DNA from: an uncultured archaeon
GTDB taxonomy: Archaea; Asgardarchaeota; Thorarchaeia; Thorarchaeales; Thorarchaeaceae
Assembly (NCBI GenBank): GCA_964648855.1
Contig: CAZYLT010000006.1
Location: 90,001 to 122,000 of the forward strand
DNA length: 32,000 nt
Reading direction: 5' to 3'
Shown: piece after piece, positions 9,868 through 17,399 of the stretch
Numbering within the stretch: the stretch's first letter is position 1
Layout of the letters: each line of letters opens with the position of its first letter
Program-made: the position numbers and the translations under genes
The notes under the pieces: model-generated
The model's database searches: none
Told to the model about the DNA's origin: nothing
What the model saw: the letters and a program-made list of their open reading frames with translations, nothing else

Positions 9868-10775
9868 TTCTTCTCCTCCCTTTCTTTTCCTTTCATTTTC
9901 GAAAGATACGAATCTGCATAGTCAGTGAAATAGAATGACCCAATGGGATCTGGGAATGCCGCCTTCAACTCCTCCGGCTCCATCTCAGCAATAGCTCCTA
10001 ATGCCGAAATGATCTTTGCACCATGATCATTTACAGCTGGTGGTGGACCGAAACAACCCTTGCATGGTGTATTGACCGTTGGACACTGTGCTCCACACAT
10101 TCCAATCGTCGCAAATCCAAGGCAGAGATACCCCTGGTCTAATAGACATTTGTCAGGGTCGATATGGCCCTCATGTGCACGATGAAACTTGGTGATATGT
10201 TTGTCCTTCTTTTCCTTTGGACATTCATCGCATACCGTCTTAGTGGGCAGATCGAATGGTTGCCCCTTAATGAGTGCCGTTAATGCTTCCGCAGTGTTGT
10301 CACTTGTTGGTGGGCAACCGGGAAGTCGTACTTCAAAGGAAACAATATCTGGATTTGGGATAATGTGCTCTACAAATCCGGGCATGTTCTCAGTAGGAAT
10401 TCTACCATCCTCGACGGTGTCTGCCTCTAGGAATTTTCGTCGTAGGAGCTCATCTAACGCCCATTGATTTCCAAGACCCTGTACTCCTCCATATACTGAG
10501 CAGGAACCCCATGCCACCAAGACCTTGCTCTTTTTGCGCATGAGCTTTAGTAGATGCTCGTCTTCCTTGGTTCTGCAGCTTCCTTCTACCATACCTATGT
10601 GAATGGAACCATCCGGCATGTTTTCAAGGTCTTTCAACTTGAAGTCAACTACTGCTGGCCAATACACAATCTCTAGTTCAGGTAGAACGTCCAATAGACG
10701 AAGATGCAGGTCGACTAGTGCCTGATCGCATCCCCAGCATGAAGTCAATTGAGCAAGTGCTATTCTCTTTGCCAT
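9864..10775 (-). CDS. vhuG: Hydrogenase small Fe-S subunit (VhuG/MvhG)
   Basis: SCWGC, VEGS, GSCSVYGG, LPGCPP, VCDECP, CLLDQGYLCLG and CGAQCP...PCKGCFGP. Overlaps vhuA by 4 bp. Confidence 0.95.
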   Translation of the reverse strand: MAKRIALAQLTSCWGCDQALVDLHLRLLDVLPELEIVYWPAVVDFKLKDLENMPDGSIHIGMVEGSCRTKEDEHLLKLMRKKSKVLVAWGSCSVYGGVQGLGNQWALDELLRRKFLEADTVEDGRIPTENMPGFVEHIIPNPDIVSFEVRLPGCPPTSDNTAEALTALIKGQPFDLPTKTVCDECPKEKKDKHITKFHRAHEGHIDPDKCLLDQGYLCLGFATIGMCGAQCPTVNTPCKGCFGPPPAVNDHGAKIISALGAIAEMEPEELKAAFPDPIGSFYFTDYADSYLSKMKGKEREEKK

Positions 10776-11770: not shown

Positions 11771-13639
11771 CTAGTGATTTTCATCCAGGTCTAGTCGTTT
11801 CAGGGTTTCCTTCGTTGGCAGTCCTGTTTCTGGGTCCCATCCTCGGACCTCATAGTATTCATCTAGCATTTCATTCAATTCCACAACCTCTCCCTTCGAT
11901 GGCCCTTTCGGCGCAGGCACGTCAGTAAGCCTCTTTGGAAGCTGGTCATCTTTTCGAGTTACACCCCGTCTAGCGTTGAAAAGGCGGTTGAGATTAACTA
12001 TTCTCTCACCAATCTCTCTCAGTTCCTCTGTTGTGAACTCAAGTCCATTATGTATCTTTAGACCGACTGCGACATCATCATAGTAGAATTCAGGCGGTAT
12101 TTGTGTGCCATATTTGCACAATCCAACGCTTTCAACAACGACCATATAGTTCTCTGATTCTGCTACCATGATTCCTTTGTACTTCGGATTCAGTCGTTCA
12201 GCCATCTCGGGAAGATACTCCTCTCCAAAACGCTCCTTTATATCATCATCAAATCCAACTTCGTCCAAGACTGGAAAGGCGTAGAGATGGTCCGCGCCTC
12301 TTGCAGCAGTGACTGCAGCAAGTCCCATCGACTTCTGGGCTCGGGGCTCCTGCCCAGCTATCTCCTGTTTTTTAACAGTCATAACAAACTCTTCAGTTCC
12401 CCGACCAATCTGTTCCGCTGCACGTTGACTCCCTTCGGCGAGGATATCACCAAAACCCTTGCGATAGGCTATCATCCGGGTTAGTTCTACAATTGCTTCA
12501 TGATTGCCCCAACTGAGATCTACACCCCCTGTATCCTCCGCCGTAATAAGGCCCTCATCCCAGGCCTCCATCGCCCAAGATATAGTCCCACCAAGGGAGA
12601 TTGTATCCATTCCGAATTGGTTTGCCAAATGATGGCTATACAGGATTGATTCCACATTCTCATTACCGCATCGAGAACCTAGTGCGGCCTGTGACTCAAA
12701 CTCCGGCGACCCGCCCTCATAACAATAGGGCCCCTTGGGCACTCGTGTGTAACGACCGCATCGCTGCAGACACGCCCAGTCGGACCTTGGCTTCACCAAA
12801 TAGTTTTCATTAATGGCTTCCCCACCGATCTTTTCGTATCCATCGAAGACCCCTTGTTTCATATTATAGGAGGGCAGTCGGCCGATGTTGTGCATCAATT
12901 CGATTAAACTAGTTGTGCCATATTTCGCTCTGTCGGGGGTGAACGGATTATCAAGCATTCGCCGGTGGAACTCATCCATTCGTTTCAGATATACATCCGG
13001 TTCTGCAACCTCAATCTTACCTGTTCCACGAATAGAGATCGCTTTAAGCTTCTTTGACCCCATCACAGCGCCCAGGCCAGAACGAGCCGAGGCTCTATCA
13101 CGGTCATTCATGATCGCTGCAAAACGGACGAGATTCTCTCCAGCTTGACCAATGGCTAGTGTTCGACATCGTATGCCATGGCGCTCTCTCAAAATATCGT
13201 CTGTTTCGAAGACATCCTTTCCCCACAAATCACTCGCATCAAGGATTTCCACTGTTTCATTCCTGATGTTAAGATAGACCGGTTCTTTAGATGCCCCTGT
13301 AAAGAAGATTGCATCATACCCTGCAAGCTTTAATTCTGGCCCCCAAAAACCAGCAGCGTGACTCTCGCCCCATATATCCGTGAGTGGTGAAAGCGCCGCA
13401 ATAACGTGTCTTGATGCCTGTGGAAACATCGAACCAGTGAGTAGACCAGTTGCCATTCCCAGTACATTCTCGGGGGACAGTGGGTCTGTATCAGCAGTTG
13501 TTCTGTCATAGATGACCTTGGATAGAAGGCCTGCACCAAGGAGGTACTTTTGAATTAGTTCTTCATCAAGAGGTTTCTTCTCTATCTCCTTTGATGTGAG
13601 ATTTACCCAAAGGATTTGTCCTCCCACGCCCTTTACCAT
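11771..13639 (-). CDS. aor: Tungsten-containing aldehyde:ferredoxin oxidoreductase family protein (AOR-1)
   Basis: SPLT...ESHAAG..GPELKLAGYD, IGQAGENLVRFA, RSGLGAVMGSKKLKA, GMDTIS, RGADHL and YYEVRGWD. Likely start is ATG at 13639 (MVKGVGG). Confidence 0.93.
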   Translation of the reverse strand: MVKGVGGQILWVNLTSKEIEKKPLDEELIQKYLLGAGLLSKVIYDRTTADTDPLSPENVLGMATGLLTGSMFPQASRHVIAALSPLTDIWGESHAAGFWGPELKLAGYDAIFFTGASKEPVYLNIRNETVEILDASDLWGKDVFETDDILRERHGIRCRTLAIGQAGENLVRFAAIMNDRDRASARSGLGAVMGSKKLKAISIRGTGKIEVAEPDVYLKRMDEFHRRMLDNPFTPDRAKYGTTSLIELMHNIGRLPSYNMKQGVFDGYEKIGGEAINENYLVKPRSDWACLQRCGRYTRVPKGPYCYEGGSPEFESQAALGSRCGNENVESILYSHHLANQFGMDTISLGGTISWAMEAWDEGLITAEDTGGVDLSWGNHEAIVELTRMIAYRKGFGDILAEGSQRAAEQIGRGTEEFVMTVKKQEIAGQEPRAQKSMGLAAVTAARGADHLYAFPVLDEVGFDDDIKERFGEEYLPEMAERLNPKYKGIMVAESENYMVVVESVGLCKYGTQIPPEFYYDDVAVGLKIHNGLEFTTEELREIGERIVNLNRLFNARRGVTRKDDQLPKRLTDVPAPKGPSKGEVVELNEMLDEYYEVRGWDPETGLPTKETLKRLDLDENH

Positions 13640-15782: not shown

Positions 15783-15928
15783 ATGGTTGCCTCGCCTATT
15801 TGCCTTGGTGAGATGAGATATTAATAATTCCTAATGGACAGCTGTGGATTTTCTTGATTATATCCATCTTTTTTCACTCTGGAGATATACAATTTCCCCC
15901 ATTTTCTAGGTAGAGTGTCCAACAAAAG

Positions 15929-15948
15929 TGTCAGATTTTTGTCAGATT
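15929..15948. repeat. Tandem direct repeat TGTCAGATT x2 (11-bp period), candidate operator
   Basis: TGTCAGATT occurs at 15929-15937 and 15940-15948. A third TGTCAGA at 16429-16435 abuts the pfkB TATA box. Confidence 0.45.
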
Positions 15949-15985
15949 CCTCCTTTGCCTAATCCGGAATCGGTCGTATGGGAGA

Positions 15986-15993
15986 TTAAATAG
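15986..15993 (+). promoter_or_regulatory. Putative TATA box for the structured RNA
   Basis: TTAAATAG, preceded by purine-rich GGGAGA, lies 20-28 nt before the GC-rich structured segment. Confidence 0.55.
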
Positions 15994-16013
15994 CCCTAAT
16001 CACATAGAATAGT

Positions 16014-16400
16014 GGACTAGGTGAGTGGGCCAGCAACATCGTGCGGAGCTCGCCGCCGAAAGCCCGAGGGAAGAAGTCTTCTTCTCGACGGAGGTCCGTA
16101 CTCTCCACCAATGGGAACCCATCATCTCCCGGAGAGTCCGCGGCTGTTCACCATGCTCAGATATGTCTTGCTGACTTCGGCGACGGAGCCAGTACGGGTG
16201 ATCATGAACCCGCCGTGATAAGAACTGTGGAAAGCCTCCCTGTGGCTGAGGGTGATGCCTCAGCAGTAACACAGGTGGAGGAAACCAGGACCGTGTGAGG
16301 AATACTATCCCGATGACCATGGACAAAGCCCCTGCTCACTCAGTGGCCTTCGGGTACACTGGGGACGGCGACACTGGCAGGGAACGGGTGGAACACAGAA
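16014..16400 (+). ncRNA. Unassigned large structured non-coding RNA (~390 nt)
   Basis: About 59% GC by hand count (16021-16380) between AT-rich flanks. It forms a near-continuous series of helices with cUUCGg and GCGA tetraloops and G-U pairs that favour the + strand. It has its own TATA box and no credible ORF. Confidence 0.72.
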
Positions 16401-16440
16401 GTTTCACACAATTTGAGTTCATTCAATCTGTCAGAAATAG

Positions 16441-16448
16441 TTTATATA
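16441..16448 (+). promoter_or_regulatory. Putative TATA box of the pfkB-family gene
   Basis: AGAAATAG-TTTATATA (BRE plus TATA) about 60 nt before the ATG at 16509. Confidence 0.55.
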
Positions 16449-16508
16449 GGCAAGGAATGGAATATATCTTCCTGAGCAGGTCTTTTACATAGTACTGAGG
16501 CCATCTAG

Positions 16509-17399
16509 ATGGAAATCATTGTCGTAGGACATCTGAGCAGAGATTTGATAATCACTCCTGACTATGAACGTGAGGCACTTGGTGGTGCAGCTGCCTATGC
16601 CATGATTGCTCCCCATCTTGGTGCTCTTGGTGCAGGGATAGTATCACGAGTGGGAGAAGATTTCGAACAGACATATGTTGACGATCTCCGTGAGGCGAAT
16701 TTAGATCTCTCCGGTCTACGAGTTGCTGGAGAAAAAACGACCCGGTTTGTCAACAAGTACGATAAGGACGGTAATCGGACGCAATACGTTGAGGCGGTAG
16801 CTCCCCAAATCTATCCAGCTGATTTCTCTCCAGAGCATCTTGAAGCCAATATCTTTCATTTCAGCCCCATTATCGGTGAAGTACACCCCAACTGTATTGA
16901 AACGACAAGGACCTACGGTGTACTGATTTCACTTGATGTTCAAGGCTATGTGCGGGAGAATGATGAAGGAAAAGTGATACCCAAGGAATGGACGGATGCG
17001 GAGCAAATTATTCGACATGTGGACATCGTAAAGTGTGACAAAGAAGAGATGCAGCTTTTTGCGGATGATTACTCCGAAAAGGATAGTGCTGAAAAGATTC
17101 TGAGGTGGGGCCCTCATGCTGTTATCGTTACCAAGAGCCAGGAGGGTTCATCCATTTATACTAGAAATGCTCAAGCTGATATTCCTTCAGTGGGTCCTGA
17201 AGATTATGTTGATTCAACTGGCTGTGGGGATACTTATGCAATTGCCTTTCTGCTTGAATATATGAGAACTGGCGATGTGAAAAGGGCGGGGCTTTTTGGG
17301 GCTTCAGCATCTTCATTTAACCTCGAACATGTTGGACCGTATTCTATGTCGTCGCGCTCAGAGATTGAAGATCGAATGAAGACATATATGGAAGCCTGA
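16509..17399 (+). CDS. PfkB/ribokinase family carbohydrate or nucleoside kinase
   Basis: VVGHLSRD, LGGAAAY, SLDVQG, VIVTKSQEGS and VDSTGCGDTY. Confidence 0.92.
   Translation: MEIIVVGHLSRDLIITPDYEREALGGAAAYAMIAPHLGALGAGIVSRVGEDFEQTYVDDLREANLDLSGLRVAGEKTTRFVNKYDKDGNRTQYVEAVAPQIYPADFSPEHLEANIFHFSPIIGEVHPNCIETTRTYGVLISLDVQGYVRENDEGKVIPKEWTDAEQIIRHVDIVKCDKEEMQLFADDYSEKDSAEKILRWGPHAVIVTKSQEGSSIYTRNAQADIPSVGPEDYVDSTGCGDTYAIAFLLEYMRTGDVKRAGLFGASASSFNLEHVGPYSMSSRSEIEDRMKTYMEA

Follow-up and report, generated by a model that had tools for sequence, protein, structure and literature searches.

The window analyzed here, 32,000 nucleotides from an uncultured archaeon of the family Thorarchaeaceae (assembly GCA_964648855.1, contig CAZYLT010000006.1, positions 90,001 to 122,000), carries on its plus strand, at positions 15886 to 16445, an inserted element of about 560 bp that is predicted to encode a structured RNA and has no tnpB gene of its own. 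Its boundaries come from an alignment of six full repeat copies, which fixes the left edge to within about 2 nt, from the element-free spacer between the ThiS and PfkB genes of a same-genus genome, G001, and from one metagenome contig that joins 15860 to 16445 and skips the element. Upstream, on the minus strand, lie genes for an aldehyde:ferredoxin oxidoreductase, a ferredoxin, an amidohydrolase, and a ThiS-family protein, a PfkB kinase gene lies downstream, and the element itself contains no intact open reading frame (ORF) of a known family. The original prediction for this locus described positions 16014 to 16400 as an orphan, independently transcribed noncoding RNA (ncRNA) inside a tungsten-enzyme cluster. 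The GC island it reported is real, with 57-58% G+C over 16000-16399 against 38-47% in the flanks, and so is the TATA-like box TTAAATAG at 15986-15993, which is preceded by a purine-rich GGGAGA and lies 21 nt upstream of GGACTAGG at 16014. Its place among genes of tungsten-enzyme metabolism is incidental, because the same spacer exists in G001 without the element.

Read from left to right, the element follows a target-like motif in its left flank, TCTGGAG (T-C-W-R-G-A-R; 15878-15884), which in the left flanks of 15 copies lies 1 to 3 nt before the conserved start. A left-end region that copy alignments show to be conserved by subfamily (15886-15985) precedes the promoter and includes two GTGTCAGA repeats, at 15929-15936 and 15939-15946, that resemble the TGTCAGA of the element's 3' end; across subfamilies, TGTCAGA and TGTAAGA co-vary between the left and right ends. 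Searches by blastn-short found no similarity between the left end and the regions upstream of full-length tnpB genes, and by eye there are only short GTCAGA and TATA-like resemblances. From 16014 to 16445 runs a scaffold of 432 nt, from GGACUAGG to UUUAU, which we classify as omegaRNA type because it is homologous throughout to the part of tnpB genes that lies 3' of the core. In the DNA, conservation breaks off abruptly at ...TTTAT (16445) in all copies, and the copy-specific right flank beyond it (16446-16469) would become a guide segment if the transcript reads through.

Counterparts at the 3' ends of tnpB genes

The omegaRNAs (or reRNAs) of TnpB proteins are encoded at the 3' end of tnpB. 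Other genomes provided 15 loci in which the ORF for the TnpB core stops at, or a few dozen bases from, the start of homology to window positions 16011 onwards; core ORF and RNA homology abut in L007, L008, and L031, which match the whole of 16011-16445 at 75-77%. The tnpB genes of related genomes that carry this homologous 3' region encode proteins of 545-625 aa. In the assembly itself, the Pfam TnpB zinc-ribbon model identified four intact genes encoding 558-624 aa, on contigs C19, C21, C28, and C4, plus two remnants, and all four intact genes bear at their 3' ends a match to R1, a covariance model that we built from a 118-nt core of the RNA (window 16284-16401). TnpB proteins of this group match Pfam Cas12f1-like_TNB, and the C19 protein matches NCBIfam guided_TnpB up to about residue 500 of 612, the remainder being a read-through tail: its last ~100 residues follow NADRNG (RuvC-III) and align with the frame of window 16008-16313. 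This homology to the post-core region makes the window RNA the counterpart of the tnpB 3' region, the site of TnpB omegaRNAs. The window copy has no tnpB in cis, being preceded by the ThiS-family gene and the promoter together with a relic of the noncatalytic TnpB tail, and it is a stand-alone derivative. We estimate a probability of roughly 80% that window 15886-16445 is a tnpB-less, nonautonomous derivative of a Thorarchaeota-type TnpB element that keeps only the guide-RNA (omegaRNA/reRNA) module, used in trans. The structured RNA and separate promoter of the original prediction fit the data, and among the roles it offered, a stand-alone guide RNA is favored over a ribozyme or ribonucleoprotein (RNP) scaffold, given the homology of this region to the 3' part of TnpB genes that encodes RNA.

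The relic frame occupies 16008-16313 on the plus strand, is homologous to the noncatalytic C-terminal tail of TnpB (C19 residues 513-613; 45% identity and E 1.7e-13 by tblastn), and is broken by a TAG at 16296-16298. It is shifted in the copies on C8 and C56, and 1- and 2-nt indels and stops occur across copies. Coding constraint has been lost, as substitution rates are flat across the three codon positions both in stand-alone copies (0.26/0.25/0.27) and in those attached to tnpB (0.30/0.26/0.32). An 85-aa frame within it, 16041-16298, has no Pfam match and no codon periodicity, and a protein-coding reading of that frame was rejected on these grounds. The earlier statement that the region holds no credible ORF is correct in that this frame has no coding signature, but an open frame does exist, as the relic of the TnpB tail. 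We attribute the stop-free run of ~100 codons kept in many copies to descent from that tail combined with constraint on the RNA. Judged from its sequence, the conserved product is RNA and not protein, and the tnpB ORF simply runs into the RNA gene.

One alternative is that the locus specifies some other ncRNA, such as a ribozyme or RNP scaffold that merely lies beside tnpB in some genomes, or a small protein encoded by the 85-aa frame. Such a reading would accommodate the unusual length and ornateness of the RNA, its conserved GNRA loops, the long stop-free run, and the lack of any Rfam family: cmscan with Rfam 15, a search proposed as one that might remove the novelty of the RNA, matched nothing in the whole window at the gathering score and nothing in 15850-16550 at E<=10, RNase P, SRP, HEARO, OLE, and group I/II introns included. 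However, the adjacency to tnpB is exact and recurrent, and the distribution of the RNA tracks that of TnpB, which occurs in 29 of 36 genomes of the family at 1 to 12 copies each and is rare outside it, while the RNA occurs in 24 of the 36 and is likewise rare elsewhere. A small protein has against it the frameshifts and stops in several copies as well as the missing Pfam match and periodicity. The original prediction had found no hallmarks of SRP RNA, RNase P RNA, tRNA, or group I/II introns, and identity with RNase P or SRP RNA was rejected because canonical copies of both sit elsewhere in the genome (C6:41563-41894, 155 bits, and C2:49700-50010, 108 bits, respectively). We regard either version of this alternative as hardly tenable.

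Fold and ends of the RNA

Folding of the single sequence did not rise above shuffled controls (z = -1.37 for the plus and +0.79 for the minus strand), and the evidence for structure is therefore entirely comparative. An alignment of 32 copies, 15 attached to tnpB and 17 stand-alone (A1), gave an RNAalifold consensus of 132 pairs in 23 helices. Standard pairs fill 91.9% of its cells, compared with 41-46% when the partners are slid by 1 to 3 columns, two-sided (compensatory) changes occur in 68 of the 132 pairs, compared with 27-36 in the slid controls, and none of 500 column shuffles reached any observed measure. When only stand-alone copies were aligned (A2, 21 copies), the consensus had 139 pairs; 92.8% of cells were paired, and 47 pairs covaried, compared with 14-21 after sliding. 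Because many G-U pairs are invariant, the fold is specific to the plus strand. Homologues and covariation, which had been proposed as a check on the original prediction, are both present.

The consensus resolves into domains, all read on the plus strand. A 5' domain (16014-16099) comprises helices 1-4, including 16014-18/16093-97, 16020-36/16041-57, and 16068-74/16080-86; these are 89-98% paired, with 3, 7, 1, and 4 pairs showing two-sided changes. Helices 5-11 (16100-16218) form a hairpin, 16100-06/16131-37, followed by a multibranch domain (16138-16218) that is closed by 16138-44/16212-18 and in the A1 consensus holds 16148-52/16197-201, 16155-58/16163-66, and a long GYGA-capped hairpin, 16167-79/16184-96. 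A large 3' domain (16225-16398, helices 12-20) is closed by CUGUG/CACAG at 16225-29/16394-98 and includes 16235-50/16259-78 and the 118-nt core from which R1 was built. The terminal hairpin (16401-16440, helix 21) pairs GUUUC.ACA with UGUCAGAAAU and has the loop motif TCAYTCA, here TCATTCA at 16419-16425; it is 94.7% paired in A2, where one pair changes from G-C to U-A in 8 of the 21 copies. Within its loop (G)TTCACTCA(C) is near-invariant, the motif GTTCACTCA is present downstream of tnpB, and RGTTTAT closes the scaffold on the 3' side of the hairpin. The last 19 nt had been considered as a fixed guide, an idea we rejected because in A2 this segment is a base-paired stretch with covariation.

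Every helix listed in the original prediction can be drawn in the sequence as described, and the 32 homologues sort them. The hairpin 16100-06/16131-37 is paired in 97% of cells, the stem 16139-44/16212-17 in 99%, and the UCACC/GGUGA helix inside it in 97%; the GNRA hairpin (GYGA in the consensus) is 88% paired with four of its five pairs covarying, and the hairpin at 16341-61 is 89% and 75% paired in its two parts, with all eight pairs covarying. A long interrupted hairpin at 16235-81 survives in its inner two thirds (96% and 75%) and fails in its outer CCUCC/GGAGG register (62%). The proposed long-range closing stem, 16020-29/16331-40, did not hold up: it is 79% paired with almost no two-sided changes, and both of its strands are taken by better-covarying helices, 16020-36/16041-57 and 16329-36/16376-83. 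The helix proposed at 16041-51/16091-101, paired in 48% of cells, fared no better, and the suggested end of the RNA at 16400 is too short, as conservation and the covarying terminal hairpin extend to 16445.

At the other end, at least five unrelated upstream sequence types, belonging to different subfamilies, all meet the scaffold at the same GGACTAGG. An A/T-rich box lies 21-28 nt before GGACTAGG in every stand-alone copy, where tnpB-attached copies have coding sequence. This pattern suggests convergent retention of the full scaffold, with a predicted promoter set at its first base, and the shared boundary is a testable prediction of the 5' end of the mature RNA. From GGACTAGG to TTAT, the scaffold measures 429-442 nt in the 21 stand-alone copies. 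In one relative (genome G012), two stand-alone copies stand head-to-head about 250 bp apart, L032:1460-1894(-) and L032:2149-2579(+); the spacer that they share holds a separate A/T box for each, and they make up a divergent RNA-gene pair.

These regularities bear on the possibility that the element is an inert relic, akin to a miniature inverted-repeat transposable element (MITE): a deletion derivative that spread passively and whose RNA is functionless, its structure inherited from tnpB-attached ancestors and not yet decayed. That the window copy is a deletion derivative with a relic frame fits this reading, as do the partial and truncated copies found on C5, on C1b, and in pieces at contig ends and the state of the closest cognate TnpB, which this assembly either lacks or has in broken form. 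Against it, stand-alone copies that have diverged by 10-25% from each other still keep 92.8% of cells paired and 47 compensatory pairs, and their length is held at 429-442 nt. Five upstream types with an A/T box at the same distance and the same first base would also be hard to obtain without selection for a defined transcript. We consider a passive relic unlikely.

Copies, insertion sites, and mobility

Far from being an orphan, the RNA belongs to a multicopy mobile family tied to a known type of RNA-guided nuclease, and it does not represent a new RNA class. With window 15990-16420 as the query, blastn matched 11 or more places in the genome itself (76-88% identity) and had many further matches in the family, spread over 24 of 36 genomes, with no match in 24 genomes of other families of the phylum. 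With the other blastn comparisons counted in, the copies in this genome span 76-91% identity. Similarity within the genome spans window 15878-16449; full copies lie on C8, C34, C20, C56, and C45, many more are cut by contig ends, and the flanks of different copies are unrelated. R1 found 19 places in this genome, of which 4 are beside intact tnpB genes, 1 is at a contig end by a tnpB fragment, 1 comes after a tnpB remnant, and all others are stand-alone. Among sampled genomes of the phylum, R1 matched 19 of 26 from the same family, with up to 24 or more copies each, and gave a single weak match in 124 other genomes. RNA copies outnumber effector genes by about 3:1 to 4:1.

Contigs of this assembly frequently start or stop inside the repeat (C2:1-237, C11:1-237, C10:1-53, C25:1-52, C6:2-261, and the ends of C31, C43, C48, and C34), and the pieces at contig ends are often only the last ~50 nt of it. 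Copy counts are therefore lower bounds, and the repeat family is a main cause of breaks in the assembly. In metagenome contigs from the source habitat, a microbial mat, the repeat is covered 10 to 45 times more deeply than its flanks, a figure that sums all organisms in the sample and so is not a copy number.

Copies are polymorphic between close relatives, with three orthologous sites found empty in G001; at the C8 site the G001 contig ends. At the window locus, G001 has 35 other bases (L063:2479-2513) in place of window 15879-16458. This 35-nt empty allele includes GAACTTCGTAGCAGTT, which is absent from the window and has the same letters in the element-skipping metagenome contig, so the insertion was accompanied by a small loss or replacement of flank and left no visible duplication. 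At the second site, a gene for an MBL-fold protein that is intact in G001 is interrupted between TCAGGAAT and GCC by the C34 copy of 548 bp, and apart from a 2-nt ambiguity nothing is duplicated; because the left-flank motif there belongs to the uninterrupted host gene of the relative, the motif is part of the flank and not of the element. The C56 site is different again, as TTGTAGA occurs once in G001 and is duplicated here, on both sides of the element. The three empty sites are dissimilar, and no target-adjacent motif (TAM) could be derived from them. Across 14 copies the left flank reads T-C-W-R-G-A-R, and in 9 of the 14 an identical 6-7-mer directly follows the right end; TCAAGA, TCTTGA, TGTAGA, TCAGGA, and TCTGGA are rare matching variants among these flank repeats.

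A Y1 transposase TnpA (PF01797) was not found in the 94.6%-complete assembly by a search whose controls did detect it, and neither of the two Cas1 genes in the genome (C32 and C42) is close to tnpB or to an RNA copy. Movement of the element accordingly appears unlike the classical IS605 peel-and-paste process. The 24-nt right flanks of ten copies match only their own loci in this genome, and secondary genomic targets of flank-derived guides gave only chance-level matches there, which fits homing or retention rather than targets in trans.

Resident TnpB proteins and the proposed role of the RNA

Every intact tnpB gene in this genome is paired head-to-head with a gene for a homologous protein of 1,540-1,830 aa (24-28% identity). 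The paired loci are C19:36416-41566(-), equivalent to L071:917-6067; C28, L072:1307-6379(-); C21, L079:47-4666(+); and C4, L080:64-5553(+). The same giant partner lies upstream of tnpB in six loci from other genomes. It has invariant D...E-x-K residues that form a PD-(D/E)xK-like motif and has no match in Pfam, PADLOC, NCBIfam, PDB sequences, or the ESM Atlas; there is no Cas1 match in Pfam either, a search that a very divergent Cas1-like domain might escape. The spacer between the giant gene and tnpB (L044-L051, C4, C21, and C28) contains a duplicated box of the CTTAATAA-GTTTAAA type and two conserved inverted repeats, GAGTTCA..TGAACTC and CTGAC..GTCAG, the first of which resembles the GTTCACTCA region at the 3' end of the RNA. 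Full-length tnpB/omegaRNA loci also adjoin tRNA genes (C21 at ~12250-12330, C28 at ~9925-9945, and L048:1-80); in C21 and C28, the reverse complement of a tRNA 3' end lies directly past the right end, and in L048 a tRNA 3' end lies just upstream of tnpB. The closest public homologues of the TnpB proteins are named Candidatus Thorarchaeota, and public data hold at least 559 homologous proteins.

Could the dispersed copies be a domesticated guide set, serving a fixed host system of the rearranged-RuvC TnpB and its ~1,700-aa neighbor in regulation or defense? The pairing of all four resident tnpB genes with the PD-(D/E)xK-like giant, which recurs in the six outside loci, would suit such a system, as would the age of the resident TnpBs, which are old paralogues only 44-61% identical to each other. 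The excess of RNA copies over tnpB genes and the two resident tnpB genes that abut tRNA genes are also compatible with it. Each putative guide, however, matches its own flank only, and the copies behave as selfish elements do, being insertion-polymorphic among close relatives and in one case interrupting a gene. The giant partner matches no known family and therefore provides no link to a function. We judge domestication to be very improbable.

Under the preferred reading, a trans-acting guide-RNA module detached from tnpB, the window copy would have arisen from a locus like those of its full-length relatives, in which the ~430-nt RNA is encoded directly after RuvC-III and the tnpB frame extends ~100 codons into it. 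The window copy lacks the whole stretch from the start of tnpB through the end of the catalytic core, and the TATA box lies 21 nt before GGACUAGG at 16014. The RNA would then be transcribed from its own promoter, fold into the conserved multidomain scaffold, and continue past the right end at 16445, so that the copy-specific flank would supply the guide. One of the four TnpBs encoded elsewhere in the genome would use this RNA in trans to recognize or cut DNA matching the flank, that is, element-free alleles. A homing or retention role of this kind has been demonstrated for bacterial IS605 TnpB (PMC10691335; bioRxiv 10.1101/2023.03.14.532601).

Several observations weigh against this model. The RuvC-II glutamate is replaced by Gly in all 13 TnpBs examined (in C19 at residues ~400-410, ..VALGRLKG..), although the RuvC-I Asp (GIDLG) and RuvC-III NADxN are kept in all 13; 'rearranged' RuvC enzymes were predicted to be active by Altae-Tran et al., a prediction made without a test (PMC10691335). 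The omegaRNA regions of the resident tnpB genes are only 66-70% identical to the stand-alone family. The resident TnpBs are 50-59% identical to the L044 TnpB, whose attached RNA is the closest to that family, and the sole resident trace of a closer TnpB is a remnant, C1:207717-207878, which is 68.5% identical to the L044 TnpB over 54 aa. Because of this divergence and because the closer TnpB is only a remnant, compatibility of the stand-alone RNA with the resident TnpBs in trans has to be assumed. Even so, the R1 scores of the attached RNAs of C19, C28, and C21 (82-105 bits) fall in the range shown by the stand-alone copies (87-133 bits). The promoter, the ends of the RNA, and its read-through into the flank are likewise predicted from DNA, some of the covariation may predate detachment from tnpB, and the scaffold, with its ~430 nt, has two to three times the length usual for a TnpB omegaRNA. 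The logic of IS605 homing may also not transfer unchanged, since most copies have 6-7-nt direct repeats and no Y1 transposase was found. After the C1 remnant itself, near which an in-frame TAG occurs, comes the 3' half of an omegaRNA sharing 82-90% identity with the stand-alone family (C1:207717-208149).

Comparison with described systems places the element within the TnpB world and sets it apart in several respects. As in IS200/IS605 TnpB omegaRNAs (ISDra2 and Geobacillus ISGst), the RNA overlaps the 3' end of tnpB, a covarying scaffold runs to the right boundary, a copy-specific flank follows, and the cognate protein shows the zinc ribbon and RuvC motifs of TnpB. In contrast to them, the scaffold is ~430 nt rather than roughly 100-250 nt and has no sequence or Rfam similarity to described RNAs; TnpB is 545-625 aa long, has Gly for the RuvC-II Glu, and is paired with a ~1,700-aa gene; and no Y1 TnpA was found, with 6-7-nt direct repeats flanking most copies. 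Stand-alone omegaRNAs acting in trans have already been described (Altae-Tran et al. 2021, summarized in PMC10691335), as have protein-less IS605 derivatives, or PATEs (bioRxiv 10.1101/2023.03.14.532601). Like these, the copies studied here are mobilized RNA modules that contain neither effector nor transposase, reside in a genome with effector loci at other places, are numerous, and are insertion-polymorphic. They differ in having a predicted archaeal TATA promoter of their own at the first base of the scaffold, where five upstream types converge, and in being old (10-25% diverged), structurally preserved, and more numerous than their effectors. The suggestion that the RNA was possibly undescribed is right in that it has no Rfam family and a literature search found no published description of it; it does not extend to a new class, as stand-alone omegaRNAs are known (PMC10691335).

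Closer in host range are the TnpBs linked to Cas1 homologues in Asgard archaea (Cas1H-Asgard-1/-2), for which a survey recorded a conserved GTTCACTCA motif downstream of tnpB and called for further work (PMC10691335). The host group and the motif are shared, although the stretch upstream of the motif is hypervariable in those systems and fairly conserved here (PMC10691335). The flanking repeats of our copies would suit an integrase that makes staggered cuts. Neither tnpB nor the RNA copies have a Cas1 gene as a neighbor here. Fanzors are eukaryotic relatives of TnpB, and their elements carry transposases other than Y1. Their omegaRNAs are also long, variable in length, and overlapping with the 3' end of the nuclease gene (PMC11423790), a likeness at the level of description.

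What is new in this family is the length of the scaffold, the predicted archaeal promoter that stand-alone copies possess, flanking repeats that resemble target-site duplications (TSDs) where no Y1 was found, the rearranged RuvC-II, and the ~1,700-aa neighbor; the excess of copies over nuclease genes is a further difference from known omegaRNAs. Taken together, these features raise a tentative possibility that goes beyond IS605-style homing, namely, that the stand-alone RNA genes, the rearranged-RuvC TnpB, and its giant neighbor form an undescribed Asgard RNA-guided system. Such a system would combine ~430-nt self-promoted guides, target-duplicating mobilization without Y1, and a two-protein effector that serves guided transposition or else acts in regulation or defense of the host; we think it rather unlikely.

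For the present, the analysis removes a false lead, in that the RNA is not a new class of ribozyme and is unrelated to tungsten enzymes. The guide-RNA module of a large, Thorarchaeota-specific TnpB family, for which the only survey to touch it had recorded just a conserved motif (PMC10691335), now has boundaries, a consensus structure, and a working covariance model. The repeat family also explains many of the contig breaks in metagenome-assembled genomes (MAGs) of the Thorarchaeota type. The departures from the IS605 paradigm, which include a ~430-nt scaffold, self-promoted copies that exceed nuclease genes in number, TSD-like repeats with no Y1 found, and an obligate giant neighbor, bear on how TnpB diversified in the archaeal lineage closest to eukaryotes and on the mining of compact editors.

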